Made by a program: the position numbers and the translations under genes
DNA from: Actinomycetota bacterium
GTDB taxonomy: Bacteria > Actinomycetota > AC-67
Assembly (NCBI GenBank): GCA_046712825.1
Contig: JBKKCR010000096.1
Span: 590 to 64,589 of the forward strand
DNA length: 64,000 nt
Reading direction: 5' to 3'
The notes under the pieces: generated by a model
Seen by the model: only the letters and a program-made list of their open reading frames with translations
The model's database searches: none
What the model was told of the DNA's origin: nothing
Shown: one piece after another, positions 10,795 to 54,120 of the stretch
How the letters are laid out: each line of letters opens with the position of its first letter
Position numbering within the stretch: position 1 is the first letter of the stretch

Positions 10795-11301
10795 CTACAG
10801 TGTCCTGCTCCATGCGAACTTGGCAACCGGCAGGCCGTCGGGCGGGCATTGGGCGAAGATTCGGGTGAAGAAGGTCCCGGCGCCCACCTCTCCGCCGTCG
10901 AAGATCAGGAACGGCGAGGCGACCGGGAAGGTCGTGAGCGGCGCCGCCCATCTCTCGGTCAGGATCAAGGGCACGAGGGTCGCGAAGCTGGTCAGAGTGA
11001 CAGTCACTTTGAGTTCCAGGTTCTGCACGAAGTCGGTCCCACCGCAACGGCCGAGCGTGTCCGAGGTCCCGGTGCCGCTGAACTCGACCGAATAGGTGCC
11101 GTGACCGTCTCCCTGACACGAGCCCTTCCCTAGGATGCTCCAGGGGCTCGCCGCCGGGCCGGGGGGGTTGGCCGTGAACTCCACAATGCCGGACGCGTCG
11201 CACGTGATCAGGCCGATATGGTTAGCCCCCGCCGTGCTCGGGAAGAGCGTGAGCAGCCCCAACGCCGCGAGCATCGCCGCGAGGCCCCGCCGGAATCTCA
11301 T
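10795..11301 (-). CDS. Small secreted hypothetical protein (paralog family B, copy 1)
   Basis: ORF 10795..11406; start re-assigned to MRFRRGLAAMLAALGLLTLFPSTAGA (frame arithmetic gives 11301). Shares GSCQGD..GTY...F.GAGTSDT.G.C......VQNL motifs with 24385..24900. Confidence 0.6.
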   Translation of the reverse strand: MRFRRGLAAMLAALGLLTLFPSTAGANHIGLITCDASGIVEFTANPPGPAASPWSILGKGSCQGDGHGTYSVEFSGTGTSDTLGRCGGTDFVQNLELKVTVTLTSFATLVPLILTERWAAPLTTFPVASPFLIFDGGEVGAGTFFTRIFAQCPPDGLPVAKFAWSRTL

Positions 11302-11698
11302 GGACTTGTCTCTCACCTGGACCCACCTCCCTGGTGGCATGCCCCCAACCCACCTCAATCCGTCGGGAACGCAAGCCATCCCTAGCCCTAAGCTACATTT
11401 CGCCACGAAGTGGACGTCCCCTGCTCAATCCGCGCCCGATTTTCGGCCTGGTGGCTGCGATGCCGGCTCAGGCCGTCTCTCCCGTTGCCGGACGACGAGG
11501 AACCAGGCCAAAGCTTCTGAACCGGCGTCGCTCGTCCCCGTTCTCTTCGAGGGAGGCGACCGGTTCCCTCTCGGACGGGGCGGTCGCGACGGCTGAGGGC
11601 GGACGAAGGGCCGCCACCCCTGAGTACGGGGTGGAGCGCCGCCGCCGTTCGGCTACGGGTACGGCGGAGGCAACAAGGGCCGCGCCGATGGAGAAGGG

Positions 11699-11842
11699 AT
11701 GTACACGTCGACCTGGGTCGTGCGGATCGACGCGCCGGTTGGGCCGGCGCGGGCGGACGTCATCGCCGCCGACGGCGAAAGCTTCGGCTACGACGACCCG
11801 CCCTTCTACGTGGCTGCCTCCAGTGCCGGCTGTCCGGGCTGA
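11699..11842 (+). CDS. Possible unlisted 47-aa ORF (MYTSTWVVRIDAPVGPARADVIAADGESFGYDDPPFYVAASSAGCPG)
   Basis: Not in the six-frame track (<60 aa). About 90% G/C at third codon positions over the whole ORF; GGAGAAGGG directly upstream of the ATG; lies in a 700-bp otherwise unassigned divergent intergenic region. Confidence 0.3.
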   Translation: MYTSTWVVRIDAPVGPARADVIAADGESFGYDDPPFYVAASSAGCPG

Positions 11843-12041
11843 TGGCCCCCAGGCCACCCGGCGAATAACCCCAGGTCAGACCCTCTCCCGGTTAGACCTT
11901 GCCCTGATTTGGGTACAAACGGAGCAACTCAGCCGGCTCAGGTGATAAAGCGAACATCCCGAAACAAGCGTTGCGGGAACTTCGCTCGAATCGTTGAACT
12001 AAGCAGATGTAGGCGTATCGTTGGTATCGGAGGTATGCAGG

Positions 12042-12308
12042 TTGCGGTCCAGGGCACGCGTCATCGTCGGCCTCGCAACGGCCTTGTGGCTGGCCGTCAT
12101 GCATTCGACCGCCTTCGCCCAGGGCTATCCCGGAGGCGGGAACACGCCCCCTCCCACGGTTGGTGGATCGAAGTTCTTCCCGGGCGACGACAAGCTTCCG
12201 CGTACGGGCACCGACCTTCTGCTGATCATCCTGGTCGCCCTCATCATCCTGTTCGTCGGGCTCGCGCTGCATCGGCTTTCTCGCCGCGCGAATCCAAGTG
12301 ACGGCTGA
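12042..12308 (+). CDS. Micro-protein with signal peptide, LPRTG motif, hydrophobic segment and basic tail (LPXTG-type sorting-signal architecture)
   Basis: Frame of ORF 12021..12308. The GC3 bias begins near TTG 12042, which sits 9 nt after GGAGG. Product: MRSRARVIVGLATALWLAVMHSTAFA|QGYPGGGNTPPPTVGGSKFFPGDDKLPRTG-TDLLLIILVALIILFVGLAL-HRLSRRANPSDG. Confidence 0.5.
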   Translation: MRSRARVIVGLATALWLAVMHSTAFAQGYPGGGNTPPPTVGGSKFFPGDDKLPRTGTDLLLIILVALIILFVGLALHRLSRRANPSDG

Positions 12309-14052
12309 TCGTTCCGCCGCTCTAAACGGCGCGCAACCTCCCGTTCCGATGCGTTCACGCGTACGCGTTCGCATCGTCTTGCTCGCGGGAGCAGCGATCG
12401 TTCTCATGATCGGAGGGCTCGCGCTGCTCGATGCGTTGGCGGTCGCGGATGACCTCCGCTCCGGTCGTGTCGCATTCAAGATGCTGACCGATCAAGGACT
12501 CACCGGCGACGGGAAGCTCGCCCTCCAAGTCGAGCGAGGCGCGGCGATATTCGCCGAAGCAGACCGGCGCGCGCAGGGAAGCGTGTGGCTCGACGGCCTC
12601 GGGAAGATCCCGTTCCTCGGACGGCCGGCCCGGTGGTTGCAAGCGGCATCGGATATCGCTGCACGACTCGGCGAAGAAGCGGCCGATTCCGTCGGGCGCA
12701 TCGAGCCGCGCCTGAAAGCTTCCGGGGAACCCAACGGGCGGCTCGAGATGATCTCGCTCGTCGAGACCGAGCTGGCGCGTCTTGGACGCCTCGTCGGCGA
12801 CATCCGCCTCCCATCCACCGGGGGGTTCCTGCCGCCGGTAAGCGCAGCCGATCGCGAGCTGCGCTCGGATCTTGCCCGGCTACGGCGAGCGCTCGTCGCC
12901 GGAACGGTGACCACTAAAGGACTTCGTGCGTTCCTCGCCGGACCGAGCACCTACGTGGTGCTCGCCGCGAACAACGCGGAGATGCGCTCCGGGGGGATGG
13001 TGCTCCAGGTCGGCGTCCTTCAGGCATCCGGGGGGCGGGTCCTCGCGGGCGGATTCCGATCGACGGGTGAAGCTGTGCTCCGCGATCCGGCGCCGTTGCC
13101 GCCGGAACTGGAGTCGCTGTACGGCTGGCTCGATCCCGACACCGAATGGAGGAACCTCGGCACCTCTCCCAACTTTCCGGGGATCGCGCCCGTCTACGCC
13201 TCGATGGCTCAGAAGAGCGGTCTGTCCCGCGTGGACGGCGTACTCCAGATCGACGTGCTCGGCGTTCGCGCCTTGCTCGAGGTGATCGGGCCGATCGAGG
13301 TCGACGGACGGCGGTACGATCCTTCCAACGTCGAGAAGCTCATGATGCACGACCTCTACGTCGCATACGGCGACGAGCAGTTCGAGCGTCGACACGAGTT
13401 CTCGCGCCTGGCGGCAGAGGCATTCCGTGTGCTGACCGAACGCAGCTCCGATCTCGGAAAGCTCGCCAAGGCGGTGAGCCGCGCGGCCGCGGGCAGGCAC
13501 CTGCTCGCATGGTCGGCGCGCCCGGACGAGCAGCGCGCCTGGGAGCGGCTGGGTATGGACGGGAGACTCGAGCGCGACGGCTTCATGGCGACGGTTCAGA
13601 ACCACGGCGGGAACAAGCTGGATTGGTACGTGCGGGCCTCGGTCGATTTGGCGGTCGAGCGTCCGGAAGGACGTTTCCGGCGCGTTCGCGCCAAAATAAA
13701 GATCGAGAACTTGACCCCGCCCGGCGAGCCTCCCTACGTCGCCGGGAATGGCGCCATCGTTCCGAAGAACGTCTACCGAGCTTTCGTCGCCGTTTACCTT
13801 CCGGGGTGGGCGACGAACGTCGAGCTCGTGGGGCGTGAGGCCCTCGTGATCGGAACCGACGGTCCGATGCGCGTCATCGCAACGCGACTCGACATCCGCC
13901 GCGCGGCCTCGGAGGTCGTGGAAGTCGTGTTCTCGGTGCCGCCGGGTATGGAACGGATCCTGCTGCTTCCGTCCGCTCGCCCGGCACCGGTTCCGTTCCG
14001 CATCGGCGATCGCACGGTCGACGATTCGGCCAAGCGTCTCGTGACCGTCTAG
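12298..14052 (+). CDS. DUF4012-like membrane-anchored protein
   Basis: N-terminal TM; the segment YVVLAANNAEMRSGGMVLQVGVLQASGGRV resembles the DUF4012 core (NNAExRxxGG). This family is commonly found in actinobacterial polysaccharide loci. Confidence 0.6.
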   Translation: MTADRSAALNGAQPPVPMRSRVRVRIVLLAGAAIVLMIGGLALLDALAVADDLRSGRVAFKMLTDQGLTGDGKLALQVERGAAIFAEADRRAQGSVWLDGLGKIPFLGRPARWLQAASDIAARLGEEAADSVGRIEPRLKASGEPNGRLEMISLVETELARLGRLVGDIRLPSTGGFLPPVSAADRELRSDLARLRRALVAGTVTTKGLRAFLAGPSTYVVLAANNAEMRSGGMVLQVGVLQASGGRVLAGGFRSTGEAVLRDPAPLPPELESLYGWLDPDTEWRNLGTSPNFPGIAPVYASMAQKSGLSRVDGVLQIDVLGVRALLEVIGPIEVDGRRYDPSNVEKLMMHDLYVAYGDEQFERRHEFSRLAAEAFRVLTERSSDLGKLAKAVSRAAAGRHLLAWSARPDEQRAWERLGMDGRLERDGFMATVQNHGGNKLDWYVRASVDLAVERPEGRFRRVRAKIKIENLTPPGEPPYVAGNGAIVPKNVYRAFVAVYLPGWATNVELVGREALVIGTDGPMRVIATRLDIRRAASEVVEVVFSVPPGMERILLLPSARPAPVPFRIGDRTVDDSAKRLVTV

Positions 14053-14058
14053 AGCGTC

Positions 14059-15540
14059 ATGAGGGCGAAGAGCTTGCTCGTCCGAACCCATATGGATGAG
14101 GTCTCTGCTCCTAGAAAGAGCGTTATCCCCCAGCAGATAGTCAGCTTCCTCCTTGCGTTGTTCGTCGGTGTTGCACCGATCGCTTCCTCGGTGCAGTCCG
14201 CATCCCCGGTCACCGTCGCACGGCTCGAGGTTCGGATCACCACGACTTCGCCGATGACGCAGGTGATCCTGAGACCGGGCCGGATCGCCGCTCAGCGTGC
14301 AATCTCAGTGCCCGACGACGTCAAGGTCACGCAACTGCCCGCCGGATGGGTGCTCAACACACCTGGGGGCCAGCTTCGCACCGTTGTGATGCGCGCCGTT
14401 TTCGAGGAAACCGCTCGCGCGTCGAAGATCCAGGTCGCCGTGCGGAAAGGTTTCGCGGGCAGGACGGACGTGGATATCCGTAACGTGTCCGGCGCTTCGT
14501 TCGCCGCTGCGCGGGTCGTGAACGATCTTCCGCGGTCCGCCACCGGAGCCAAGTCGAGCGACGGACTCACCGTGGTGCTCACCCGAACGCGCGCGCAGCT
14601 TCTCGGCTCGGCCAACCCCACTGCGATGCTTCCGGTCGATCCGCAGCGTCTCGTCCTTGCCGCGTACTACCCGTGGTACCCGGGGACGGAAGGCAGGTAC
14701 GCCAACCCGCAGTTCGCAGACCGTCCCGTGGATGGCCGCAGCACCGCGACATGGGCCGGGGTGCTTTCGATGACGCAGCAAGCCCGGCAGGTGGGGGTCG
14801 ACGGCTTCATCGTCTCGTGGGAAGGCGAGGGTTACTCGGGCAAGAGCTTCGACCTTGCGCTTACGGCCGCGCGTCAAACCGGCGGCGTTGTCTCTCCATA
14901 CCTCGAGATGCTGCGCGCGCGTGCTCCCGGCGACACGAGCGGCAAAGCCAACCCGCTCGTCGTTCTCGAGTGGCTGAGCGCGGTGCTGGGGAGGGCCGAC
15001 AACCCGGCGTTCTTGCGATCGGGTGGCATCCCGGTGGTCTTCGTCTGGCAGATGGGCAACCTGAGCCGTCTCGGCTGGCTGAACGTGCTCGGCGAGCTCG
15101 CCAAACAAGGGAAGGATGTGCGGCTCGTCGGCGACGCCGACAACTCCTACGGAGCGGTGCAGTGGGGCGTGCAGGAGTACAACCCGAACTTCATGTCGCC
15201 CGCCGATCTGGCGCGGCACAACCGCGACGTGATGCTCGACACGAGGTTGTTGGCGACGTCCGACGCGACGGCACCGCATGTGTACGTCGCGACCGTCTCT
15301 CCCGGCTACGACGATTCGAAGATCCCCGACCCCGCGCGCACGGCTCCGGTCGTCGCGCGCGGTGAGGCGGGCGAGCGGTACATCGCCTCATGGGATGCCG
15401 CTCTCGCAGCCCAGCCGGACTGGGTGATGATCACCTCATGGAACGAGTGGTTCGAGGGCACGGCCATCGAGCCGAGCATCGGCCACGGGGACCTTGCGCT
15501 CCGTCAAACCGCGGAACAGGCCGCGCGTTTCGCCGAATAG
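14059..15540 (+). CDS. Secreted GH99-like protein (endo-alpha-mannosidase / WbsX-related fold), copy 1
   Basis: YYPWYPG...VDGFIVSWEGEG... and C-terminal WVMITSWNEWFEGTAIEP (compare the GH99 catalytic NEWHE region). Paralog of 41030..42478. Confidence 0.55.
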   Translation: MRAKSLLVRTHMDEVSAPRKSVIPQQIVSFLLALFVGVAPIASSVQSASPVTVARLEVRITTTSPMTQVILRPGRIAAQRAISVPDDVKVTQLPAGWVLNTPGGQLRTVVMRAVFEETARASKIQVAVRKGFAGRTDVDIRNVSGASFAAARVVNDLPRSATGAKSSDGLTVVLTRTRAQLLGSANPTAMLPVDPQRLVLAAYYPWYPGTEGRYANPQFADRPVDGRSTATWAGVLSMTQQARQVGVDGFIVSWEGEGYSGKSFDLALTAARQTGGVVSPYLEMLRARAPGDTSGKANPLVVLEWLSAVLGRADNPAFLRSGGIPVVFVWQMGNLSRLGWLNVLGELAKQGKDVRLVGDADNSYGAVQWGVQEYNPNFMSPADLARHNRDVMLDTRLLATSDATAPHVYVATVSPGYDDSKIPDPARTAPVVARGEAGERYIASWDAALAAQPDWVMITSWNEWFEGTAIEPSIGHGDLALRQTAEQAARFAE

Positions 15541-15613
15541 GGCCCAAACGGTTGACCCCTTCTCCCTGCCCGGCCAGAATAGCGTCCTCTCCGGGGCCCG
15601 AGACGAGGGCGGC

Positions 15614-16333
15614 ATGAGCGGAAACGCCAGAGAATCGATGCGGACGTATTGGGACGAGGCCGCCAGGACCAACGCGGCCTGGTACGTCGATACCAGCCTC
15701 AGCTTCGACTCTCCGGACCTCGACCGGTTCTTCGAGACGGGCCGAACGGTCGTTGCCGCCGCGCTGGACGAGGCGAACGTCGTTCCGGCGGGCCGCGCCC
15801 TCGCCGTCGAGATCGGCTCGGGACTGGGGCGCATCTGCCGTGCGCTGTCGGAACGGTTCGATCGTGTGATCGGCCTCGACATCTCCGAAGAGATGGTGCG
15901 CCGGGCGAAGGAGTTCGTGCCCGAGCCGCGCATCGCATTCGAGGTCTCCAGCGGAACGGATCTGCGTTCGGTTCCCGACGCGGCGGCAGATCTCGTGCTG
16001 ACGTTCACCGTGTTCCAGCACATCCCCGACGTCGGTGTCATCGAGGGATACGTGCACGAGGCGGGGCGCGTCTTGAAGCCCGGCGGCGTGTTCGTGTTCC
16101 AGTGGAACAACACGCCCGGCGCGCGACGGTGGGCGTTCAAGCGGAGTTTGCTGGGGTTCCTGCAGCGGACCGGCTTGCGATCGGAGCGCTACAAGCGCAA
16201 CGCTCCGGAGTTCCTCGGCAGCCGAGTTCCGCTCGATCGCATGCGCGCCGCGCTGACCGCCGGGGGGATGGATCTGCGCGACACCATGGGCCTCGACACG
16301 CTATACGCCTGGGCGTGGGCGGTGAAGCGATGA
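15614..16333 (+). CDS. Class I SAM-dependent methyltransferase
   Basis: VEIGSGLGRICRALSERFDRVIGLDISEEMV (motif I) ... VLKPGGVFVF; internal ATG chosen in ORF 15494..16333. Confidence 0.7.
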   Translation: MSGNARESMRTYWDEAARTNAAWYVDTSLSFDSPDLDRFFETGRTVVAAALDEANVVPAGRALAVEIGSGLGRICRALSERFDRVIGLDISEEMVRRAKEFVPEPRIAFEVSSGTDLRSVPDAAADLVLTFTVFQHIPDVGVIEGYVHEAGRVLKPGGVFVFQWNNTPGARRWAFKRSLLGFLQRTGLRSERYKRNAPEFLGSRVPLDRMRAALTAGGMDLRDTMGLDTLYAWAWAVKR

Positions 16334-17463
16334 GGAAGCGCGAGCTCGCGAAGTCCGCGGTGCGCAACGGCGTCCCGCTCGCGCTCGTCGCCACGGCGCT
16401 GCGGCCCCGCGCGTCGCGTCTGCAGCGTGCCGGCGCCCTCGCTGCCCTGCTCGGCTTCTGGAGCGTCATCTACGCGCGCTACCGCAAGGGCGGCGTCGCG
16501 CAAACTCACCATGAACGCGAGCTGCTCAAGGGCGTCTCCTGGGAAGCGTTCTGGCGGCACTACAACGAACGCGTGCCCACGATCGAGGAAGAGTTCGAGA
16601 TGTGGGGCGCGTATCACCAGCATCGCCACGAGATGCGCTACGACCTCGTCGCCGACGAGGTACGCAAGTACCTTCCGCCCGGCGGCCGGGTGCTCGACGT
16701 CGGGTGTGGAAGCGCGCTGGTCGCCGACCGGATCCGCGACATGGACGCGACCTATGTGGGCTTCGATTTCGGCGGGCACCACATCGAGTACGCGGCGAAG
16801 AAATACGCGGATATCACCGACCGCAAGCTCGGAACCGTGTTCGCCCGCGGCGACGCGCAAAAGATGCCGTTCACCGATGCGAGCGCGGATGTCGTGGTAT
16901 TCAGCGAAGTCATCGAGCATCTCCTTCAGCCGGAGCTGGCCGTGTGGGAGATCGCCCGGGTCCTCAAACCGGGCGGCGTGCTCGTGATGACGACGAACAA
17001 CGCATCCGAGGTGCCGCTGCGCTCTCCGCTGTCGCACCTGTTCGCTTGGCTCGAGAAGGCTTTCGGGGCCGAGCACCCGAAGCTCATCTCGCTGCGACCG
17101 TGGGTCTGGCCGTGGCCGGTCGACCGGGATCTGCTACCGGAGGGATCCCCGGACGTCTACCTGCCGCACACGCACCACATCATGGGCGAGACCCGCGCGA
17201 TGTTCGGTGCCGCCGGGCTCGACACGTTCGAGTGGTCGACGTTCGAGTTCCCGCCGCCGCAAGCAGCGTCCGCGCAGTGGCTCGATAAGCGCGGGGCGCC
17301 GGGACGCAAAGCCGTGGACGCGATCGAGTGGGCGGCGCAACGCACGCCCCTCGTTTGGCGGCTCGGCTGTCACGTGTTCATGCGCGCGCGAAAGGTGTCC
17401 GACCCCGTGTCGCCAACGCCGCCTCCGGGCGTGTGGCCGGGACCCTTCTCGGGCGGGGACTAG
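16330..17463 (+). CDS. Class I SAM-dependent methyltransferase (with N-terminal extension)
   Basis: VLDVGCGSALVADRI...VVVFSEVIEHLLQPELAVWEIARVLKPGGVLVMTT; ATGA overlap with the upstream methyltransferase. Confidence 0.65.
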   Translation: MRKRELAKSAVRNGVPLALVATALRPRASRLQRAGALAALLGFWSVIYARYRKGGVAQTHHERELLKGVSWEAFWRHYNERVPTIEEEFEMWGAYHQHRHEMRYDLVADEVRKYLPPGGRVLDVGCGSALVADRIRDMDATYVGFDFGGHHIEYAAKKYADITDRKLGTVFARGDAQKMPFTDASADVVVFSEVIEHLLQPELAVWEIARVLKPGGVLVMTTNNASEVPLRSPLSHLFAWLEKAFGAEHPKLISLRPWVWPWPVDRDLLPEGSPDVYLPHTHHIMGETRAMFGAAGLDTFEWSTFEFPPPQAASAQWLDKRGAPGRKAVDAIEWAAQRTPLVWRLGCHVFMRARKVSDPVSPTPPPGVWPGPFSGGD

Positions 17464-17482
17464 ACTCCGCCGGGAAAAGACG

Positions 17483-18598: not shown

Positions 18599-18602
18599 CG
18601 GT

Positions 18603-21272: not shown

Positions 21273-21291
21273 CAACCCACGGTGGGCGGCG

Positions 21292-24304: not shown

Positions 24305-24384
24305 AGGTGAGGCACGGCTCCAGGGGATCGCAGCAATACCTTCGCACGGTTCTGTTACAAGCCACCCACAGGGAGGGGGCGACA

Positions 24385-28633: not shown

Positions 28634-28678
28634 CTGAGCTCGCACGATAACACCGGGTTGGGGGCGGCTGGGGGCCGA

Positions 28679-34022: not shown

Positions 34023-34053
34023 GGCTCAGGCCTCGAACCGTATAGTTGGCCCA

Positions 34054-39575: not shown

Positions 39576-39600
39576 CGAGGAGACCGAAGGGCTCGCGCGC

Positions 39601-42478: not shown

Positions 42479-42773
42479 CGCGTTCGATCGTCCGCGGGCC
42501 TGAGCGAGCCTCGGTCCGCCATGCGATACCCTTGCCTGTAAATGGCCGTTCTTCGACTCAGGCAGGTATCAGATCCGAACGCGTAAGCAATCCACCGAAC
42601 CCAAAGAAGCCGGCGGAGGACAAGCTCCTGCGGCCGAATCGCCGCCTCCGGCCGAGCCGGTAGCGCCGCCGACGCCGGCCCCAGCCCCAGCCCCAGCGCC
42701 TACACCCCGACCGCCGCGGCTGCAGTTCCGTGCCCCATCCCTGCGCCTGCTCATCGCGGCGGCTCTCATCGGT

Positions 42774-47355: not shown

Positions 47356-48287
47356 GCCGTGCGTTCGCGACTTTCGATCATCCGCCACAAGGTCCGCGCG
47401 CCGATCGCAGGATCGCCGATCACCCATCCGACCCGGGCCGCCAGCGACTCGGCGGCGACGATCGAGCGGATCTCGCGAGGAAGCTCGAACAGGAAGCGCC
47501 GGTGAAGAGCCAGGCGGTCGCGCTGGCTCTCTGCTCCGATCAGCTTCAGCTTCGCCTGATGGTAGGCGAGACACGCTTCGGACATCTCGGCGCGGTGCTT
47601 GGAGATGAACCGCACGTGTCCGTCGCGCAGCTTGTCTCGGGTCCCGGTCAGCGCTTGAGCCCCGTGGTAAACGTAGGTGCAGAGGGGCTCCGGCACGACG
47701 TCGAAGCGTCGCTTCTCGGCCAGGCGATACCAGAGATCCCAGTCCTCGCACGGCGGCAAACCTTCGTCGAATCTCACAAGGCTCTCGTCGAACGCGCTGC
47801 GGCGAAGCGCCACGAACGACGCGCCCCCTGCGAAGTCGTTCCACAGGAGCCCGCGCGCGGATAGCCGCGTCGGACCTTTCCAGACGTAGGTTCGCGGTTT
47901 GCCCTCGAAGACGATCCGGTAATGACACGAAACGGCGCCCACATCCGGATGCTCGGTCATGTACTCAACCTGCCGCTCGACCTTGGAGGGATGCCACGCG
48001 TCGTCGTCATCGAGGAAACCGATGAACTCGCCGCCGGCGTGCGCTATCCCGTGGTTTCGAGCGTTCGCGGCGCCGGACGCCTGCGGTATCCGTAGGTAGC
48101 GGATCCGGCGGTCTTCGGCGGCCAGCGCTTCCACGACCTCGGGTGTCGAATCGGACGACCCATCATCGACCACGAGGATCTCGATGTTGCGGAACGTCTG
48201 CGCGCTCGCGCTGCGAACGGCGGCCGGCAGCCGATCGGCGCGATCGTGCGTCGGAAGGACGACGCTCAGCAGCGGCTGGGCGGTCAT
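47352..48287 (-). CDS. Glycosyltransferase family 2
   Basis: LSVVLPTHDRADRLPAAVRSASAQT...EILVVDDGSSDST...FLDDDDAWHP. Confidence 0.8.
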   Translation of the reverse strand: MTAQPLLSVVLPTHDRADRLPAAVRSASAQTFRNIEILVVDDGSSDSTPEVVEALAAEDRRIRYLRIPQASGAANARNHGIAHAGGEFIGFLDDDDAWHPSKVERQVEYMTEHPDVGAVSCHYRIVFEGKPRTYVWKGPTRLSARGLLWNDFAGGASFVALRRSAFDESLVRFDEGLPPCEDWDLWYRLAEKRRFDVVPEPLCTYVYHGAQALTGTRDKLRDGHVRFISKHRAEMSEACLAYHQAKLKLIGAESQRDRLALHRRFLFELPREIRSIVAAESLAARVGWVIGDPAIGARTLWRMIESRERTA

Positions 48288-49399
48288 GCGGTCCGGTGCG
48301 CGGCCGTCGCGGAACCGGCACGCTCGATCGCGCGGGCGTAGATCGCACGGATGCGCGGGACCACGGCTTCCGTCGTGTGGTGCGCAAGCGCGTACCGACG
48401 GCCGGCCTCGCCCAGCCTCCCGGCGAGCTTGTCGTCGTCTAGGAGCCGGTCTATCGCGGTCGCGAGCGCCTCGGCCGACTCCGGCGGTACGACCAGCCCA
48501 CCGTCGCTGCGGTCGACGAACTCCCGGAGCGCACGGTCGTCGCTCACCACGACCGGCCGCCCGAGCAACGCGGCTTCGATCACCGTGATGCCGGCGCCTT
48601 CGGGGCGTAAGCGCGGGATGGCCGGAGCGACGAGCGTGCGCGCACCTGCCATGAGCGCGCGCACGGCATCCTCGTCGAGCCTCCCGAGCATCTTGACGCG
48701 GTCGCCGAGCGGAGCGGCGAGTGCGGCCAAAGCAGCCGACTCGGAACCATCCCCGGCGATAAGGAGCCGCGCAGAGGGGTGCCTGCCGGCGATCCGTCCG
48801 AACGCAGCGACGGCGATGTGCGCGCCCTTGTCGCGGCTGAGCCGTCCGACGAAGACGACGTCCGTCGCGGTCCCGACCGGCGCAGGCTCCTCCGTCGGGT
48901 TCGGAGCGAAGACGGGAACGTGCTCGACGTCTGGGAACCCGGCTGCGCGCAGGCGGTGCGCGATCTGTTCGGAGACCGCGGTCGCGACGTGGATGCGGCG
49001 GCGCGCCACGCGGGTGTCGAGAGCCCCTTTGAGGCGCCCTGCGGCCGAGCGGAGGCCGCGGGCACGGTCGTCGGGCACACCGAACAACCGAAAGTCATGG
49101 ACGGTCAGAACGTTCGCGGTGCCCGCCGGGACGCCCAAGACCGAGGCGGAGAGCTCGCGAAGGACGTTGTGATGGTGGACGACGTCGGGCTTGAAGTGAG
49201 CGGCAACCCGGGTGAGCGCGCGACGGGCGAACGGATCCCACGCGTCGAGGAGGCGGCCGATGCCTCGATGCTCCACTTCGCCGGCGAAAACCACGACCTC
49301 GTCGCCTGCGCTCCGCAACCCGTCGAGCAAGCGGCCGGCATAGATCTCGGCGCCCCAGCCGGCGCCGAGCGGGAGGTCGTTCACGAAGAGGATGCGCAT
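48284..49399 (-). CDS. Glycosyltransferase family 4
   Basis: MRILFVNDLPLGAGWGAEIY...EGAGITVIEAALLGRPVVVSD. Confidence 0.8.
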   Translation of the reverse strand: MRILFVNDLPLGAGWGAEIYAGRLLDGLRSAGDEVVVFAGEVEHRGIGRLLDAWDPFARRALTRVAAHFKPDVVHHHNVLRELSASVLGVPAGTANVLTVHDFRLFGVPDDRARGLRSAAGRLKGALDTRVARRRIHVATAVSEQIAHRLRAAGFPDVEHVPVFAPNPTEEPAPVGTATDVVFVGRLSRDKGAHIAVAAFGRIAGRHPSARLLIAGDGSESAALAALAAPLGDRVKMLGRLDEDAVRALMAGARTLVAPAIPRLRPEGAGITVIEAALLGRPVVVSDDRALREFVDRSDGGLVVPPESAEALATAIDRLLDDDKLAGRLGEAGRRYALAHHTTEAVVPRIRAIYARAIERAGSATAAHRTA

Positions 49400-49523: not shown

Positions 49524-50243
49524 ATGGTTTCCCTGCGCAGGATCCAGAAGGACTGGAACGAGTTCGGGAAGACCGATCCGTTGTGGGCCGTGATCACCGC
49601 CGAGGGTACGCGCGGTGGCAAGTGGGATGCGGACGCGTTCTTCGAGACCGGACGGACCGAGATCAGCCAAGTCATGCAAGTGATCGACGGGCTGGGTGTG
49701 CCGGTCGGGAGGGCGCGAGCGCTCGATTTCGGCTGCGGGGTCGGCAGGCTCTCGCGGGCGCTCGCCGATCATTTCGCGGAAGTCGTGGGGGTCGACATCG
49801 CGCCGTCCATGATCGAGCTTGCCAACAAGATGAGCTCCGTCGACGGCCGGTGCACGTACGTCCTCAACGAGTCGGATGAGCTCCGCATGCTTCCGACCGA
49901 CTCCTTCGACCTGGTTTACTCCAACATCACGCTCCAGCACATGCCCCCGCGCTACGGCTGCCGCTACCTTGAGGAGTTCTTGCGGGTCACGCGGCCCGAA
50001 GGATTGATCGTGTTCGAGCTGCTTCGCCCTCCGGACAGTCGCTACCGAAGGGCTCGAGCCTTCGCGGGCCACATCAGGAACCAGCTCATGAGACGGCCGT
50101 CGATGCACGCCTACTGGATGACTGGCCGAGCGGTTCGAAGGTTCTTCGATGGTCGAGGTGCTACGGTCCTCGACGAGGCGAACACGTATCACGACGGATA
50201 CGCCCAGCGGGTCAGGTACTGCGTCGCGCCTGCGCGGACCTAG
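49524..50243 (+). CDS. Class I SAM-dependent methyltransferase (paralog of 34054..34809)
   Basis: FGKTDPLWAVIT...ALDFGCGVGRLSRALADHFAEVVGVDIAPSMIELA...ITLQHMP. Confidence 0.7.
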   Translation: MVSLRRIQKDWNEFGKTDPLWAVITAEGTRGGKWDADAFFETGRTEISQVMQVIDGLGVPVGRARALDFGCGVGRLSRALADHFAEVVGVDIAPSMIELANKMSSVDGRCTYVLNESDELRMLPTDSFDLVYSNITLQHMPPRYGCRYLEEFLRVTRPEGLIVFELLRPPDSRYRRARAFAGHIRNQLMRRPSMHAYWMTGRAVRRFFDGRGATVLDEANTYHDGYAQRVRYCVAPART

Positions 50244-50268
50244 GAGGGCTTGAGCGTGCGGCCCGAGC

Positions 50269-51744
50269 CTAGTTGGGGCCGCGGCGGTGGAGGAGCGCCG
50301 GGATCGTGCGGACCAGAAGCCGCATGTCGAGCCACAGCGACCAGTTCTCGATGTACGCGAAGTCGAGCTTGATCATCTCTTCGTAGGTCAGCTCGTTCGA
50401 TCCCGAGACCTGCCAATAGCCGGTGATGCCGGGGCGCACGGCGTGACGCTGATTGTCGACCGGGCCGAAATCCTGCGGCTCGACGGCGAGCGGCCGGGGG
50501 CCGACGAGCGACATGTCGCCGCGGATGACGTTCCAAAGCTGCGGCAGCTCGTCGATCGACAGGCGGCGGATCAGTCGTCCGACCTTCGTGATACGCGGGT
50601 CGTCGTACACCTTGAACAGCAGCCCGTTGCTGACGTTGTGATCGCGGAGATCGATGATCAGTCGCTCGGCGCCGACGACCATCGAGCGGAACTTGAGCAT
50701 GTGGAACACCTTGCCGTCGCGCCCGACACGGCGCTGCCGGTACAGGATCGGCCCGCGGTCGAGCACCTTGATGCCCAGCGCGACCGCCGCGAGGATCGGC
50801 GCGATCACGAACATGATCAGCGAGCCGACGACGATGTCGAACAGGCGCTTGCCCGGGAGCGCGCGGTGGTGTTGCGCGATCTTGCCGAGCGGGATCAGCG
50901 GCAGTCCGCCGGCCTGAGTGACGAGTCCCGGGTGGAGGAAGAACTCGGACATCGGCGGCAACATCGAGAAGGACACGTCCCCTTCGGAACCCTTGACGCA
51001 TTCGAGGATCGCCTCGTCGCTGCCGTCAGGCGCGAGCACCACGTGCTCGATGTCGGCGTCGGCGATCGCGCGCGAAAGCTCCTGCGCGGCGGGGAACGAA
51101 GGGACGAACCGCGTGTAGCCGTGACCGTTACCCGTCGGCAGCATCGCGACGGGAAGGAGTCCGACCTCGGGGAAGCTCATGAGCTTGTGGGAGAGCAGGC
51201 GCCCGTGCTTGCTGTCGCCGACGATCAGCGTGCGCCGCAGGCCGACGCCGCGGCGGCGTGACTCGACGAGCGTCAGCCAGGTGATGAGCCGCATCCCGAT
51301 CAGCGCCGAGGCCGCGACGATCCCGAAACGGACGACGTCCTTGCGCACCCAAAAGGCGACGTCCGGCGCGATCGCGAACGCGACGAGAACCGTGAGGGCC
51401 GTCGGCATCCCGATCAGCGAGATCGCCCAGAGGACGCCCTGTGTTTCCAGGGTCGTCCGGAATCGGTACCAGTTGGAGACGTAGAGGACGGTGACGAGGG
51501 CGGCCGTGAGCGGTACAAGCGCCTTCAACGGTACGCCGGCCAGCGCGGCCGCTCCCCCTATCGCAAGAGCGTCGATCGGCAGGACCCGCGGTCCGTCCGC
51601 CCGGTGAACCGTGTCGAGGGCCCGGAGCCAGCGCGGGAACCGGCCGCCCGCCTTAACGGAGACATGCGTCTTGACCTGCGGCTTAGCAGGTCGAGGTGGG
51701 GCGAGGCGTTCCTCTACGGTGCCGGTTGCCATGTCAGTTGTCAC
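50269..51744 (-). CDS. Undecaprenyl-phosphate sugar-1-phosphate transferase (WbaP/CpsE-type polyprenyl glycosylphosphotransferase)
   Basis: N-terminal TM block plus C-terminal 'bacterial sugar transferase' domain: KRLFDIVVGSLIMFVIAPIL...PILYRQRRVGRDGKVFHMLKFRSM...DELPQLWNVIRGDMSLVGPRP. Confidence 0.85.
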   Translation of the reverse strand: MTTDMATGTVEERLAPPRPAKPQVKTHVSVKAGGRFPRWLRALDTVHRADGPRVLPIDALAIGGAAALAGVPLKALVPLTAALVTVLYVSNWYRFRTTLETQGVLWAISLIGMPTALTVLVAFAIAPDVAFWVRKDVVRFGIVAASALIGMRLITWLTLVESRRRGVGLRRTLIVGDSKHGRLLSHKLMSFPEVGLLPVAMLPTGNGHGYTRFVPSFPAAQELSRAIADADIEHVVLAPDGSDEAILECVKGSEGDVSFSMLPPMSEFFLHPGLVTQAGGLPLIPLGKIAQHHRALPGKRLFDIVVGSLIMFVIAPILAAVALGIKVLDRGPILYRQRRVGRDGKVFHMLKFRSMVVGAERLIIDLRDHNVSNGLLFKVYDDPRITKVGRLIRRLSIDELPQLWNVIRGDMSLVGPRPLAVEPQDFGPVDNQRHAVRPGITGYWQVSGSNELTYEEMIKLDFAYIENWSLWLDMRLLVRTIPALLHRRGPN

Positions 51745-51951
51745 GCGTGTCCCCTGTACATGTACGCAGGTTACGTCTGGGCCTTACACGCGGATAACGA
51801 ATCCCCCTGCCACTCGATTCGACGGCGAGCCAAGGAATCCTCTCTAAGCGGTAAGTTCGGGCGACTATGGGTGATCCGGTCGAGACTCCGAGTGAGTCGA
51901 ACTGGTTAGTGGAGGGGCGGCGGCCAGGCGACGGGCTACACTCGGCCCTCG

Positions 51952-53121
51952 ATGCGCTTGGCCGTTTACCACCCCTGGACATACCTGCAAGGCGGGATCG
52001 AGCGGATCCTCGTCGAGCTCTTCCGTCGAAGCAGACACTCCTGGACTCTCTATACCCACCGATTCGAGTCGGAAGGAACGTTCCCGGAGCTTTCGAGTAA
52101 TCCGGTCGTCGAGCTGTCACCGAGAGTGTCGGTGAAGCGATCGCTGGGCCCCCTTGCCCACGCTGCGTGGACGATGGGGAGGGCTCGCCTTCCCGAGCAA
52201 GGCAACAAGGCGCTTCTGGTGTCTTCGGAGGGGCTGGGTGACTTCATCGTCGCCCGCAACCGCCTGCCGGCCGTCTGCTACTGCCACACGCCGCTCAAGA
52301 TCTTCCACGACCCCGCCACGAACCAGGCGCTCAAGCGCCGCGATCCGCGCAAGGCACTCGCCTTGTCCTTGCTCGGCCCGGCTTTCAACGTCGCCGACCG
52401 GCGCATGTGGCGGCGCTTCCGGCACGTGTTCGTCAGCAGTGAGGAGATCAGGGGCCGCGCCGAGCGCGCCGGTCTGCGTCCGTCGGGTCCGGTCGAGATC
52501 CTTCCGCCCGGCGTCGATCTCGAGTGGTTCAGCGACGACGGGAACCCGCGAGAGCGGTTCCTGCTCGTCGCGGGTCGCGTGAAGTGGTGGAAGAACATCG
52601 AGCTCGCGATCTCCGGGCTCGCCGAAGCGCATCGCCGCGGCTCGACCGCGCCGATGGTGATCGCCGGCGGCGTCGATCCACTCGACGGGGAGTATCTGGA
52701 CCGTCTGCGCGCGCAGGCCAGCGGCCTGCCGGTGACGTTCGAGACCGAGCCCACACAGGAGCGGCTGCGGGAGCTCTACCGCCGCTGCGCGGCTCTCGTC
52801 CTTCCGACGCTCAACGAGGACTTCGGCATGGTGCCGCTCGAGGCTATGGCGTGCGGAGCCCCCGTCGTGGCCGTCGACTCCGGCGGCCCACGTGAGACCG
52901 TCGTGCCGGGGAAGACGGGCTGGCTCGTGCCGCCAACGCCGGAGGCGTTCGCCGAGGCGATCGCGCGAGCGACCTCCGGTGAAGGGCCCATCCCCGGCGT
53001 TCGCGAGGCTGCACGGGCCCGCGCCGAGCAATTCACCTGGGGGAGATTCGTAAACCGACTGGACGACGTGATGGAGGCGGTGGCGCTACAGGAACCCGAG
53101 CGAGGACAACGCGGCCCGTAG
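51952..53121 (+). CDS. Glycosyltransferase family 4
   Basis: ...EDFGMVPLEAMACGAPVVAVDSGGPRETV. Confidence 0.75.
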   Translation: MRLAVYHPWTYLQGGIERILVELFRRSRHSWTLYTHRFESEGTFPELSSNPVVELSPRVSVKRSLGPLAHAAWTMGRARLPEQGNKALLVSSEGLGDFIVARNRLPAVCYCHTPLKIFHDPATNQALKRRDPRKALALSLLGPAFNVADRRMWRRFRHVFVSSEEIRGRAERAGLRPSGPVEILPPGVDLEWFSDDGNPRERFLLVAGRVKWWKNIELAISGLAEAHRRGSTAPMVIAGGVDPLDGEYLDRLRAQASGLPVTFETEPTQERLRELYRRCAALVLPTLNEDFGMVPLEAMACGAPVVAVDSGGPRETVVPGKTGWLVPPTPEAFAEAIARATSGEGPIPGVREAARARAEQFTWGRFVNRLDDVMEAVALQEPERGQRGP

Positions 53122-54120
53122 CTGCTCGGCGGCGTCGGACCAGCGCCACGCGGGCGGTGGGCCGAAGGCGACCTCGCCGCGGAGCGCATCTCGCATCGCG
53201 GAAGCCCACGCTTCGACGTCCCCCGGACGCACGAACCTCGCGGCGTCTCCCGTGCTCTCGTGCAGCACCGGGATGTCAGACACCAACGCCGGCACGCCGC
53301 ACGCGAGCGCCTCGACGGGGGGGAGTCCGAAGCCTTCGTAGCGCGACGGGAACACCAGCGCGGCCGCGCCCGTGAGCAACGAGCGCAGGTCCTCGTTCGG
53401 CAGGTATCCGATGACCTGGACGGTCGGGGCGTCCGGGATGTGAACGGGCCCGAAGTTGGAGTGCGGACGGCCGACGACGACCAGGCGGTGCGGGGTCTCA
53501 GCGACGATGGAGAGATGTGCCGCGACCGCGGTTGCAACGTCCTTGCGCGGGTCGGCCCAGCCGACGCACAAGAGATACGGCTCGGTGAGTCCCAGACGCC
53601 CCTTTGCTGCCGCGACGGCATCGGGTGTGGCGGGTCCGTACCCGTCATCGAGCGCGTTCCGTACCGCGAAGACGCGGTCGGGGGAGTAGCCACCGGCGAT
53701 GAGCTCCCGCCGGACCTGCTCGCTCGGCGTGAGGATCCCGCGAGCCCGTTTCGCGGACGCCCCGGCCAGCCGGCCGTAGAGGCGGCCGATCCGGCTGAAC
53801 CACGTGGGGTCGATCTCCCAGCCGAGGTCGTGGATCATCACGATGCTTCGTCGCACTGCGAGAGGTGCGGTGTTGGCCAACGAGATGATCGGGCGTCGCC
53901 CGGCCGCCCGCGGCAGCAGGACCTGCTCCCAGACGTGCTCGCCGAACCGCCCGGGAGGCGCCCAAACCGCTCGATCCACTCGGGGGTCGTCGGCGCCCGC
54001 TGGGGCGATAACCTCGAGTCGGAGCCCCGCAGCCCGGCCACCGTCCACCAGGCCCCTCCCGACCCGGTGGATGCCGGTAGCCGCCCCCCGCAAGAAGCGG
54101 CCGTTGACGACCAGACTCAC
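53086..54120 (-). CDS. Glycosyltransferase family 4 (mannosyltransferase-like)
   Basis: ...YEGFGLPPVEALACGVPALVSD; convergent 36-nt overlap with the previous gene. Confidence 0.75.
   Translation of the reverse strand: MSLVVNGRFLRGAATGIHRVGRGLVDGGRAAGLRLEVIAPAGADDPRVDRAVWAPPGRFGEHVWEQVLLPRAAGRRPIISLANTAPLAVRRSIVMIHDLGWEIDPTWFSRIGRLYGRLAGASAKRARGILTPSEQVRRELIAGGYSPDRVFAVRNALDDGYGPATPDAVAAAKGRLGLTEPYLLCVGWADPRKDVATAVAAHLSIVAETPHRLVVVGRPHSNFGPVHIPDAPTVQVIGYLPNEDLRSLLTGAAALVFPSRYEGFGLPPVEALACGVPALVSDIPVLHESTGDAARFVRPGDVEAWASAMRDALRGEVAFGPPPAWRWSDAAEQLRAALSSLGFL

Follow-up and report, generated by a model that had tools for sequence, protein, structure and literature searches.

A gene cluster of about 43 kb from an uncultured actinobacterium combines parts of two surface polysaccharide pathways, which raises the question of whether it makes one glycan or two, and how the product would reach its acceptor. 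The cluster lies at 10.8–54.1 kb of the 64-kb stretch of DNA analyzed (hereafter the window; coordinates are followed by + or − for the strand). Genes were called by GC3 (54 calls plus small open reading frames), all calls were scanned against Pfam, and the named components were also compared with NCBIfam. Pfam recovered the 13 glycosyltransferases (seven GT2 and six GT4) and five SAM methyltransferases that the initial annotation had counted. The locus also encodes one initiating transferase, one ABC exporter (Wzm/Wzt), five PAPS-type sulfotransferases with a dedicated ATP-sulfurylase/APS-kinase, two sulfatase-family proteins without the sulfatase motif, two GH99-like proteins, a DUF4012 protein, a phosphopantetheinyl transferase, an acyltransferase, and small conserved proteins of the secreted, lipoprotein, and LPXTG types. 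Most likely, it is one conserved cluster for a surface sugar polymer that is heavily sulfated and methylated.

The extent of the locus is conserved in relatives. In GCA_975198055.1 (62–67% identity), the relative whose locus was read in both halves, the whole block from the DUF4012 gene to the Bac_transf gene runs uninterrupted and in the same order on a single contig, so 11–24 kb and 25–53 kb are not independently conserved loci. This contiguity, a single initiating enzyme, and a single exporter disfavor the suggestion that two glycans are encoded side by side. In L007, L009, and L010, the DUF4012 gene marks the left boundary. At the right end, a GT4 gene (53086-54120, −) is followed by genes for a 633-aa protein and a cupredoxin, and the same flank occurs in L012 and one further relative locus.

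The reading we prefer, and whose chances we put at about even, is that a sulfated, methylated, and capped polymer is completed while bound to a lipid carrier, leaves the cell through Wzm/Wzt, and is transferred to an acceptor by a WaaL-fold protein. We infer all catalytic steps, and their sequence, from the gene content, folds, synteny, and co-variation observed here. Priming of polyprenyl phosphate would fall to the polyprenyl-phosphate hexose-1-phosphate transferase at 50269-51744 (−), which has the WbaP architecture initially assigned to it (Bac_transf, 222.9 bits), scores 344.6 bits against NCBIfam TIGR03025 (cut-off 295.6) and below the cut-offs of both the WbaP- and the WcaJ-specific NCBIfam models, and is 97% identical in L004. 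Up to 13 cytoplasmic glycosyltransferases would then build the chain: by Pfam, GT2 proteins at 17582-18598, 23166-24089, 29778-30764, 34823-35671, and 47352-48287 (all −), with two more discussed below, and, besides the one at the right end, GT4 proteins at 18603-19859, 22039-23169, 35668-36750, and 48284-49399 (all −) and 51952-53121 (+). Those at 34823-35671 and 35668-36750 are 91–96% identical in L004.

The exporter was likewise found where it had been placed. Wzm (38730-39575, +) is an ABC-2 permease (ABC2_membrane, PF01061, 57.7 bits) whose best NCBIfam matches, galactan Wzm and KpsM, are both under cut-off. Wzt (39508-40845, +; true start probably near 39601) carries an ABC_tran ATPase and a C-terminal Wzt_C carbohydrate-binding domain (53.2 bits). 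This domain is a hallmark of the export of completed, capped chains, and following the E. coli O8/O9a paradigm it would read the terminal modification before Wzm/Wzt exports the finished chain. In agreement with the initial annotation, we found no Wzx-type flippase (Polysacc_synt, MurJ, MATE, or GtrA-type protein) among the 54 gene calls and small open reading frames of the window, nor in those parts of the related loci that were read. The single Bac_transf, the single Wzm/Wzt, and this absence of Wzx support ABC export, as does the Wzt_C domain.

Sulfotransferases and methyltransferases require cytoplasmic PAPS and SAM, and family knowledge suggests that the chain would be decorated before export. 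Four heparan-sulfate-type sulfotransferases (Sulfotransfer_1/Sulfotransfer_3; 26929-27792, +; 27803-28645, 28944-29777, and 30752-31591, all −) have intact PAPS-binding motifs, GAMK(A/S)GTT and R-x-P-x-x-R-x-x-S; the fifth, a 423-aa Sulfotransfer_3 protein (24968-26239, −; 95.8 bits), has orthologs in L007 and L009. PAPS would come from the bifunctional ATP sulfurylase/APS kinase (36785-38533, −; NF004040, 920 bits, cut-off 669), whose gene is divergent from wzm in L002, L004, L012, and one further relative locus. The initial annotation had omitted this sulfation machinery, along with the sulfatase-family, GH99-like, DUF4012, phosphopantetheinyl transferase, acyltransferase, and small secreted proteins. 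Two methyltransferases, at 15494-16333 and 16315-17463 (both +; Methyltransf_11, 69.7 and 75.9 bits), have orthologs 78–90% identical in L007 and L010; the others were identified with Pfam at 21292-21963 (−), 34009-34809 (+), and 49524-50243 (+). Intact cofactor motifs in the sulfotransferases and methyltransferases support a predicted cytoplasmic decoration, to which a hexapeptide-repeat acyltransferase (32560-33411, +; profile match; kept in L002) and two Thr-type alkaline-phosphatase-superfamily enzymes may contribute. One of the latter, a cytoplasmic sulfatase-family protein (19866-21275, −; PF00884, PF01663) with more than 1285 homologs, has W-T-L-P-S-H in place of the sulfatase Cys/Ser-x-Pro-x-Arg motif, by motif search and in the sequence; the second (31605-32477, −; Pfam) has W-T-A-P-S-H instead. 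An Sfp-type phosphopantetheinyl transferase (33408-34022, −; profile match) is kept in L002 and L004.

Downstream of the exporter lies a cassette (41.0–47.4 kb) that begins with the second GH99/GH71/WbsX-like protein (41030-42478, +; Pfam), which has a signal peptide. This gene is always directly upstream of that for a mini polysaccharide co-polymerase (mini-PCP; 42573-43328, +), with a GH5 in its place in L013. The mini-PCP has a Pro/Ala-rich N-terminus, TM1, an external domain of ~125 aa, TM2, and an RRRR tail, and its predicted model has a polysaccharide co-polymerase fold, with KpsE among the top structural matches. The Wzz-like character first proposed for this two-TM protein was thus retained and its start was revised: the GTG at 42774 truncates TM1, the true start lies upstream (at least 42720), and it is probably the conserved ATC at 42573. 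A TTGA overlap couples the gene translationally to that of the Wzy_C-family polytopic protein at 43325-45145 (+), which scores 39 bits against Wzy_C (gathering score 31.7) and has ~14 TM helices, as the earlier family assignment held. This WaaL-fold protein carries an extra C-terminal module of a TM helix, a beta-alpha-beta-beta-alpha-beta domain with PCP-like topology in the model, and a TM helix. Filing it as WaaL was rejected, as it had no NCBIfam match, no PDB sequence match, and Asp in place of the ligase His. Two GT2 proteins complete the cassette: an MftF-like protein with ~4 C-terminal TM helices (45164-46450, +; TIGR03965, 370 bits, equivalog cut-off 280) and a second at 46447-47355 (+; Pfam).

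Synteny ties this cassette to the exporter. Wzm/Wzt precede the mini-PCP–Wzy_C pair by one to three genes in five relatives, and the order Wzm-Wzt-...-GH-miniPCP-Wzy_C is seen in five relatives with mini-PCP identity down to 48%. The string with zero to two intervening GT2 genes is co-directional in the window, L002, L004, L012, and one further relative locus. The GH-miniPCP-Wzy_C triad persists among sulfotransferases to 39% identity in one relative and 31% in L013. Compared with the near-identical relative L004, flanking genes are 89–97% identical, whereas the tract comprising the Wzt C-terminal domain, GH99, PCP, Wzy_C, and four glycosyltransferases is only 54–78% identical; within Wzt, identity drops from 96% in the ATPase part to 76% in the C-terminal domain. 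The exporter's sugar-binding domain therefore co-varies with the Wzy_C/PCP pair, and this co-variation, with the Wzm/Wzt-to-Wzy_C synteny, supports a single route.

The cassette could instead make its own glycan or glycoconjugate, such as a beta-glucan-like oligomer, independently of the sulfated ABC-exported polymer, which we consider distinctly unlikely. It is exchanged as a unit, and a TACCCT box and an SD-like site, conserved ahead of the mini-PCP gene, point to a transcription unit of its own. The GT2 at 45164-46450, above the MftF equivalog cut-off and with its own TM domain, occurs in P0010 as a fusion with the Wzy_C protein, and MftF builds a cellulose-like chain (PMC7491314). In L001 (75% identity), GH99 fragments, mini-PCP, Wzy_C, and two GT2 genes border housekeeping genes with no Wzm/Wzt within 10 kb, which counts against the reading we prefer. 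However, the GH99-like gene there is split into three fragments, so the copy may be a decaying remnant. The cassette's co-directional position next to Wzm/Wzt in four further relatives, the reach of the variable tract into the Wzt sugar-binding domain, and the one lipid-carrier initiating enzyme in the locus also argue against a second product.

Under the preferred reading, the WaaL-fold protein and its coupled mini-PCP would move the glycan from lipid carrier to final acceptor outside the membrane, and the two secreted GH99-like enzymes may trim or release the product. That reading corresponds to the earlier proposal that an ABC-exported polymer is ligated by the Wzy_C protein, which is the best supported of the alternatives; the protein itself is not assignable as WaaL. 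The Wzy_C family comprises at least 184 clusters. In its alignment, eight charged residues are invariant in all 14 members (identity down to 28%), including R245, R305, E307, R308, and D338, which lie around the loops of the WaaL-type active site; loop 289-347 is poorly modeled (pLDDT <50). Where WaaL and PglL have their catalytic His, an alignment by motif register only apparently places the invariant Asp D338, which counts against a ligase. So do the dedicated co-polymerase and hypervariable cassette, which are more characteristic of a Wzy polymerase than of a donor-relaxed ligase.

These features would fit a true hybrid of pathways, in which the Wzy_C protein acts as polymerase with the mini-PCP as its co-polymerase, and lipid-linked units or blocks are joined outside the membrane once Wzm/Wzt, or a flippase encoded elsewhere, has exported them. 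The coupled PCP-fold partner, a second PCP-like domain within the Wzy_C protein, divergence far faster than in the rest of the locus (as for wzy in O-antigen loci), the missing His, and the lack of a sequence-level match to WaaL all favor it. We nevertheless judge it rather unlikely: no Wzx was seen in the window or related stretches read, Wzt_C indicates export of finished capped chains, 13 glycosyltransferases far exceed the needs of one repeat unit, and we know of no case of Wzm/Wzt feeding a Wzy polymerase.

One account names LCP-family enzymes as the usual ligases of monoderms (PMC7831098), and such canonical ligases encoded elsewhere could make a Wzy_C ligase unnecessary. The mini-PCP and Wzy_C-like protein might then serve the exporter mainly in a structural role, forming a cage or scaffold as KpsE does around KpsMT, with an LCP-family ligase attaching the polymer to peptidoglycan. 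The window contains no LCP gene and the ligase His is missing, both in line with this idea, but the invariance of eight charged residues, among them those around the WaaL-type active-site loops, argues for catalysis rather than scaffolding and makes it very unlikely.

For the preferred route there is precedent in the S-layer glycan (slg) model of Geobacillus stearothermophilus NRS 2004/3a and Paenibacillus alvei, with WsaP/WsfP, Wzm/Wzt, the WsaE methyl cap, and WsaB/WsfB (PMC2943079). Like this locus, that monoderm pathway combines WbaP-type initiation, Wzm/Wzt export of a chain that has been finished and given its methyl cap in the cytoplasm, no Wzx, and, as we propose here, a Wzy_C-domain membrane protein as final transferase (PMC2943079). 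The attachment route was therefore overstated as unusual for a monoderm; the new parts are sulfation and the unusual ligase-like family. Unlike the slg loci of Firmicutes, this one belongs to Actinomycetota (63–72% GC), has no recognizable S-layer gene, and would make a multiply sulfated glycan; its Wzy_C protein is coupled to a mini-PCP, carries an additional extracytoplasmic domain at the C-terminus, and has Asp at the His position. Compared with WaaL of E. coli and Cupriavidus metallidurans (PDB 7TPJ), that protein is 15% identical with no HMM-level match, has ~180 extra C-terminal residues and Asp for the His of the HN motif, and occurs in an organism in which lipid A-core is not expected. 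As in KpsMT-KpsE, a co-polymerase-fold protein accompanies an ABC-transporter pathway that builds its polymer on a lipid anchor in the cytoplasm (PMC11041684). KpsE (PCP-3) extends through the periplasm with a long helical region and has the outer-membrane channel KpsD as its partner, whereas the mini-PCP has only ~125 extracytoplasmic residues and no outer-membrane partner here. E. coli O8/O9a, with its chain-terminating methyltransferase, resembles this locus in Wzm, Wzt with Wzt_C, and methyltransferases, which here could cap the chain, but initiation here is WbaP-type rather than WecA-type, and the cap could be methyl or sulfate. Synechan is Wzx/Wzy-dependent. The predicted sulfated exopolysaccharide clusters for synechan (xss, Synechocystis) and wps-1 (Actinoplanes missouriensis) also hold sulfotransferases within a polysaccharide locus, and wps-1, which is actinobacterial, includes a methyltransferase and a glycoside hydrolase and is described as Wzx/Wzy-dependent with two sulfotransferases (PMC8205485; PMC13390465). 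Unlike either, our locus has Wzm/Wzt, its own PAPS synthase, and five sulfotransferases.

Several predicted surface proteins accompany these genes. The DUF4012 membrane-anchored protein (12349-14052, +; PF13196, 92 bits) has a counterpart in the B. longum EPS locus that adjoins a priming glycosyltransferase and wzz (PMC5412050). Its neighbor here and in L007, L009, and L010 is the first GH99/GH71/WbsX-like copy (14059-15540, +; Pfam), with an N-terminal membrane anchor (TM residues 27-45). Directly upstream of DUF4012, as in L009 and L010, a 95-aa protein read directly from its ORF (12021-12308, +) consists of a signal peptide, a mature part of ~30 residues (TPPPTVGG...), and an LPRTG sorting signal for sortase; its last bases overlap the DUF4012 gene when that gene is taken from its longest-ORF start, the GTG at 12298. 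Two small secreted Cys-containing paralogs, g09 (10795-11358, −; signal-like N-terminus, no Pfam match) and g20 (24307-24900, +), are 46% identical, and both have orthologs inside the locus in L007, L009, and L010 (58–73% identical for g20). A predicted lipoprotein (26276-26848, −; lipobox LSAC), absent from the GC3 calls and recovered by tblastn, combines a linker rich in Ser, Thr, and Pro with a ~100-aa domain bounded by Cys and is a candidate glycan acceptor. Its orthologs lie among sulfotransferase genes in L007 and L009, and paralogs occur at 9799-10113 and, as a remnant, at 11624-11836.

The glycan locus extended from ~10.8 kb to 54.1 kb and held functions beyond those in the initial annotation. 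Because G+C content was high across the window (63–72% in 2-kb windows), raw ORF lists were crowded with spurious frames. Genes were called by third-position GC and all calls were searched against Pfam, with NCBIfam as a second database for key genes. The elements of the initial annotation were all present where it had placed them, including 13 glycosyltransferases (seven GT2 and six GT4) and five SAM methyltransferases by Pfam, and the WbaP-type transferase (50269–51744), Wzm (38730–39575), Wzt (39508–40845), and the Wzy_C protein (43325–45145) by Pfam or NCBIfam. This parts list was correct as far as it went, but five sulfotransferases and a PAPS synthase were missing from it. Further genes outside its description encoded two sulfatase-family proteins, a DUF4012 protein, a hexapeptide acyltransferase, and a phosphopantetheinyl transferase, and two GH99/GH71/WbsX-like proteins were recognized from Pfam and N-terminal features as membrane-anchored or secreted. 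We note that all enzymatic roles at this locus are putative, as they are predicted from family membership. NCBIfam gave no classification for the Wzy_C protein, the small co-polymerase-fold protein coupled to it (mini-PCP), or the DUF4012 and GH99-like proteins; Rfam had zero matches in the window, and a promoter and terminator scan of 38–55 kb stayed at background level.

Initiation and export functions were consistent with a single ABC-transporter-dependent pathway. The predicted initiating enzyme (50269–51744) combined a PHPT catalytic domain (Bac_transf, 222.9 bits) with an N-terminal multi-TM region and passed the general EPS priming model TIGR03025 (344.6 versus a cut-off of 295.6 bits), but scored below the WbaP-specific TIGR03022 (280 versus 403 bits) and the WcaJ model (292.8 versus 410.8). 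Its architecture is WbaP-like, while these two models, whose scores reflect sugar specificity, do not assign its sugar. The export set was complete, with Wzm matching PF01061 (57.7 bits) and Wzt matching both PF00005 (73 bits) and the Wzt_C domain PF14524 (53.2 bits). By analogy with E. coli O8/O9a, for which recognition of capped chains by Wzt_C is established in work cited within PMC2943079, this domain would imply that the exporter recognizes a completed, capped chain; candidate chain-terminating cap enzymes are the five methyltransferases and five sulfotransferases. As the initial annotation had reported, no Wzx flippase was recognized: Pfam found no Wzx/Polysacc_synt, MurJ, MATE, or GtrA protein within the 64-kb window, and Wzx was likewise absent from every related locus stretch read. 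These searches covered single contigs, and genes for a Wzx, an LCP ligase, a sortase, or an S-layer protein may lie elsewhere in the genome. With one initiating enzyme, one exporter, cytoplasmic PAPS- and SAM-dependent decorations, and a Wzt_C domain, one pathway is the most economical reading. Since an ABC pathway needs no extracytoplasmic polymerase, the best explanation for the WaaL-fold Wzy_C protein is that it would take the finished glycan off its lipid carrier after Wzm/Wzt export. We regard this single pathway, with the Wzy_C protein freeing the glycan from the carrier, as about an even bet.

Such a combination of parts has precedent. The initial annotation had considered export by Wzm/Wzt followed by ligation an unusual attachment route, yet monoderm Firmicutes are already known to have the same mixed architecture, which means that the route itself is no novelty. 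The published model for the S-layer glycans of Geobacillus stearothermophilus and Paenibacillus alvei likewise places a transferase after Wzm/Wzt export; the review describing it calls the pairing of a WbaP homolog with Wzm/Wzt "rather unexpected" and names WsaB and WsfB, which carry Wzy_C domains, as the predicted transferases (PMC2943079). Like these slg-type systems, the window locus unites a PHPT, Wzm/Wzt, and a Wzy_C-domain candidate transferase in one locus. The LPXTG signal within the locus and the names of its homologs, which are labelled as "Actinomycetota bacterium" MAG proteins, argue for a monoderm organism without LPS. The novelty lies elsewhere. The lineage belongs to the uncultured Actinomycetota, sulfation is predicted on a large scale along an ABC route, and the WaaL-fold family involved is unnamed, has a constant mini-PCP partner, and carries an additional outward-facing domain and an altered catalytic motif.

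Genes for sulfation were a prominent part of the locus. Apart from cyanobacteria, bacteria are considered to make sulfated polysaccharides only rarely. Five predicted sulfotransferases (Sulfotransfer_1/3, Pfam) were encoded at 24968–26239, 26929–27792, 27803–28645, 28944–29777, and 30752–31591, and the PAPS-binding motifs GAMK(A/S)GTT (5'-PSB) and R-x-P-x-x-R-x-x-S (3'-PB) were visible in four of them. A bifunctional ATP-sulfurylase/APS-kinase (36785–38533; 920 bits, NCBIfam) would supply PAPS. From this content we predict a surface polymer that is densely sulfated, resembles glycosaminoglycans, and is made by a pathway differing from Wzx/Wzy. The only actinobacterial sulfated-polysaccharide proposal found in our literature search, itself a prediction, was a 2026 paper describing a Wzx/Wzy cluster in Actinoplanes as the first hint in actinomycetes (PMC13390465). 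In comparison with that cluster, which has two sulfotransferases, the window locus has five, its own PAPS synthase, and an ABC route.

Two genes on the reverse strand, at 19866–21275 and 31605–32477, were considered as sulfatases, and this identity was rejected. Neither product has the C/S-x-P/A-x-R formylglycine motif; W-T-x-P-S-H stands in its place, and for this reason they should not be called sulfatases. Both proteins are predicted to be cytoplasmic, and the motif predicts a Thr nucleophile. Phosphotransferases and pyrophosphatases within the alkaline-phosphatase superfamily use such a nucleophile. Related loci carried up to two adjacent copies of this sulfatase-family protein. The phosphopantetheinyl transferase (33408–34022, reverse strand) is of the Sfp/PptT type and adjoins the hexapeptide acyltransferase; no carrier protein for it was detected in the window, and the gene is kept in L002 and L004, two related locus stretches.

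The Wzy_C protein (43325–45145, forward strand) belongs to the WaaL/Wzy_C group but appears to depart from characterized ligases at a key position. Family and topology searches agreed with its earlier description as a Wzy_C-family polytopic protein: residues 232–356 matched PF04932 (39.0 versus a gathering score of 31.7 bits), it has ~14 TM helices and a WaaL-type polytopic fold, and every listed homolog except one (P0013) carried PF04932. Curated ligase models had no match; NCBIfam returned no family at E ≤ 0.01, and no PDB sequence matched the family profile at E ≤ 10. An AF2 model built from 14 sequences is only moderately confident (pLDDT 71.5), with its key loop poorly modelled (residues 289–347 below 50), and Foldseek gave no significant match to it. 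Residues invariant in all 14 aligned family members included R189, R194, R245, R266, R305, E307, R308, and D338. R245 (WTYTR245SAY) aligned to R215 of E. coli WaaL (ALTQTR215ATL) in a weak, local profile-to-sequence alignment, and R308 would correspond to WaaL R288 by motif register. The His of the WaaL H-N-x-x-L-E motif, which precedes the next TM helix, was absent, and an invariant T-D338-S-x-F-L...E-x-G occupied that register. D338 may therefore take the place of the His of WaaL H-N-E-I-I-E-A-G, an assignment by motif register with no significant alignment.

We rejected the possibility that this family is extremely rare. A word-indexed search had returned 13 relatives, a number that proved to be an artefact of that method. 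When the profile was searched exhaustively, 2211 representatives were found at E ≤ 0.001 and 184 at E ≤ 1e-30, which makes this a sizeable branch of 184 or more clusters (50% identity). Most representatives are ~600 residues long and align with the full length of the profile, its extra C-terminal module included. This module has a generic ferredoxin-like fold, and since hhalign gave it no homology to the mini-PCP (probability 0.3), "Wzy_C-PCP fusion" is a statement of topology only. The locus thereby defines an unnamed WaaL/Wzy_C branch, marked by its constant mini-PCP partner, an additional extracytoplasmic domain, and an Asp at the catalytic His position. Whether its members act as ligases or polymerases bears on how ABC-exported glycans are completed in monoderms when LCP enzymes take no part.

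The mini-PCP (42573–43328, forward strand) had been described as a mini Wzz-like protein at 42774–43328. The small two-TM protein is indeed present, but the annotated GTG at 42774 cuts its first TM helix. Like a co-polymerase, it has two TM helices around an extracytoplasmic alpha/beta base domain; its extracytoplasmic part is only about 125 residues, hence "mini". It lacks the long helical hairpin of the periplasmic bell and had no Wzz (PF02706) or GNVR match in Pfam, even at E ≤ 10. Its stop overlaps the Wzy_C start by 4 nt (TTGA), and the pair is kept in all relatives examined, as expected of a co-polymerase partner. KpsE offers a precedent for a co-polymerase that is attached to an ABC exporter (PMC11041684).

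The mini-PCP gene appears to begin at an unusual codon. We compared the upstream region of the window (42504–42780, forward strand) with those of L001 (9200–9460), L002 (9230–9530), and L004 (9250–9400), all related locus stretches. In all four, the reading frame is open further upstream of the annotated GTG, and an SD-like GGC(A/G)GG is followed after 6–7 nt by ATC or ATT. No ATG, GTG, or TTG lies in frame 5' of the first TM helix. The codons after ATC/ATT in L002 (I-R-T-R-K) differ from those of the window at third positions only. Because the open frame, SD-like site, Ile codon, and following codons are conserved, we place the start at 42573, where translation probably begins at a non-canonical AUC/AUU codon. 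About 40 nt upstream of this putative start, a (G/A)TACCCT box is conserved, and duplicated in L002; it looks like a -10 element of an internal promoter, which is predicted at about 42.52 kb.

A GT2 gene (45164–46450, forward strand) always lies 3' of the Wzy_C gene, including in L001 and L004 among the loci read, and in L004 the two are fused. Its product has C-terminal TM helices of its own and scores above the cut-off of the MftF equivalog model TIGR03965 (370.1 versus 280 bits). On mycofactocin, MftF builds an oligoglucose chain resembling cellulose (PMC7491314). Pfam found no radical-SAM or mft genes (the mftA-E association) in the window. Annotation pipelines would probably give this protein a wrong name; alternatively, the role of MftF-like enzymes is wider.

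Gene order across related genomes supported treating the locus as one unit. In GCA_975198055.1 (62–67% identity), stretches L002 (17.2–39.0 kb) and L007 (40.2–61.6 kb) of one contig together contain the entire window locus, contiguous and colinear: DUF4012, GH99-like, the methyltransferase/GT/sulfotransferase region, PAPS synthase, Wzm, Wzt, GH99-like, mini-PCP, Wzy_C, GTs, and Bac_transf. The left part is repeated in L009 and L010, with the left chromosomal flank also common to L009. The right part is repeated in L004, L012, and an additional related locus, the last two of which share the right flank. More distant loci keep the GH-miniPCP-Wzy_C triad amid sulfotransferases at 39% and, in L013, 31% identity. 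The sole exception to co-location was L001 (75% identity), where a cassette of a GH99-like gene in three ORFs, mini-PCP, Wzy_C, and two GT2 genes sits between unrelated genes. This reduced cassette, on a 420-kb contig, adjoins a 677-aa protein (4949–6982, reverse strand) whose CarboxypepD_reg and OMP_b-brl_4 domains resemble the outer-membrane architecture of TonB-dependent receptors, which is odd for a presumed monoderm. A GTDB genome scan found two distant relatives only, a Mycobacteriales MAG and an Acidimicrobiales MAG. The locus is conserved across a clade of uncultured Actinomycetota.

Within this conserved order, identity to L004, which comes from a close relative, was mosaic. At the protein level, 91–97% identity was seen for GT2, GT4, PAPS synthase, Wzm, the ATPase part of Wzt, Bac_transf, and one GT4, and DNA identity was 92% over 34.8–40.8 kb and 87% over 50.3–54.1 kb, versus 66–69% over 41.0–49.4 kb. 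Proteins of this variable tract were less similar: the Wzt C-terminal domain was 76% identical, the GH99-like protein and mini-PCP 54%, Wzy_C 55%, and four GTs 67–78%. The left breakpoint falls inside wzt, between the ATPase and sugar-binding domains, which puts the Wzy_C/PCP pair in one variable unit with the substrate-recognition domain of the exporter. The mosaic suggests cassette exchange among close relatives and is of the kind that structure-determining cassettes show in O-antigen and capsule loci, which suggests serotype-like surface variation in soil actinobacteria. Such variability would be expected of a structure-specific polymerase, but also of a ligase co-varying with its acceptor, as waaL co-varies with core type. 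It is one weak point of ABC export followed by ligation; others are the Asp at the His position, the dedicated co-polymerase, and an acceptor represented by candidates only.

Several secreted products of the locus are candidate acceptors. A predicted lipoprotein (26276–26848, reverse strand), with a Ser/Thr/Pro-rich linker and a Cys-bounded C-terminal domain, is encoded amid the sulfotransferase genes and kept in L007 and L009, where linker composition is conserved and its sequence is not. Its paralogs are at 9799–10113 (forward strand) and, as a remnant with the N-terminus lost to in-frame stops, at 11597–11839 (forward strand). A second candidate is a 79–95-aa ORF found in the window (12021–12308, forward strand), L009 (18709–18948), and L010 (14378–14641). 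It encodes a signal peptide, ~30 mature residues (Q-x-YPGG..TPPPTVGG..FF.G.D), and a sorting signal of LP(R/K)TG or IPRTG, a hydrophobic stretch, and a basic tail. This ORF is always directly upstream of the DUF4012 gene, whose longest-ORF start it overlaps in the window and L010. Its small size for a sortase substrate points to a role as peptide carrier or anchor, not to a folded protein of the cell surface. Third are two secreted ~190-aa proteins (10795–11358, reverse strand; 24307–24900, forward strand), 46% identical with conserved Cys and no Pfam family; for each of the two, L007, L009, and L010 hold a separate ortholog within the locus. A glycolipid or oligoglucan from the MftF-like GT2 pair is a further candidate.

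These candidates allow a more specific reading, protein or peptide glycosylation in a monoderm actinobacterium, in which the Asp-for-His WaaL-fold enzyme, with its PCP-like domain and mini-PCP, would ligate the Wzm/Wzt-exported sulfated, methyl-capped polysaccharide onto carriers encoded in the locus. The candidate carriers are the lipoprotein (26276–26848) and the 30-residue LPXTG peptide (12021–12308), which sortase would fix to peptidoglycan. We consider this reading improbable; if true, it would mean a sulfated, "proteoglycan-like" cell-wall polymer in bacteria.

The locus lies between a branched-chain amino-acid ABC importer (4.5–9.6 kb) on the left and, on the right, genes for a 633-aa secreted protein, cupredoxin and PQQ proteins, topoisomerase IB, a STAS protein, and an ATP-dependent DNA ligase. 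The 633-aa protein (54350–56251, forward strand) has no Pfam family and is followed by the cupredoxin. Both recur as the right flank of the additional related locus, and the large protein alone is found in L012, so it may be part of a conserved neighbourhood.
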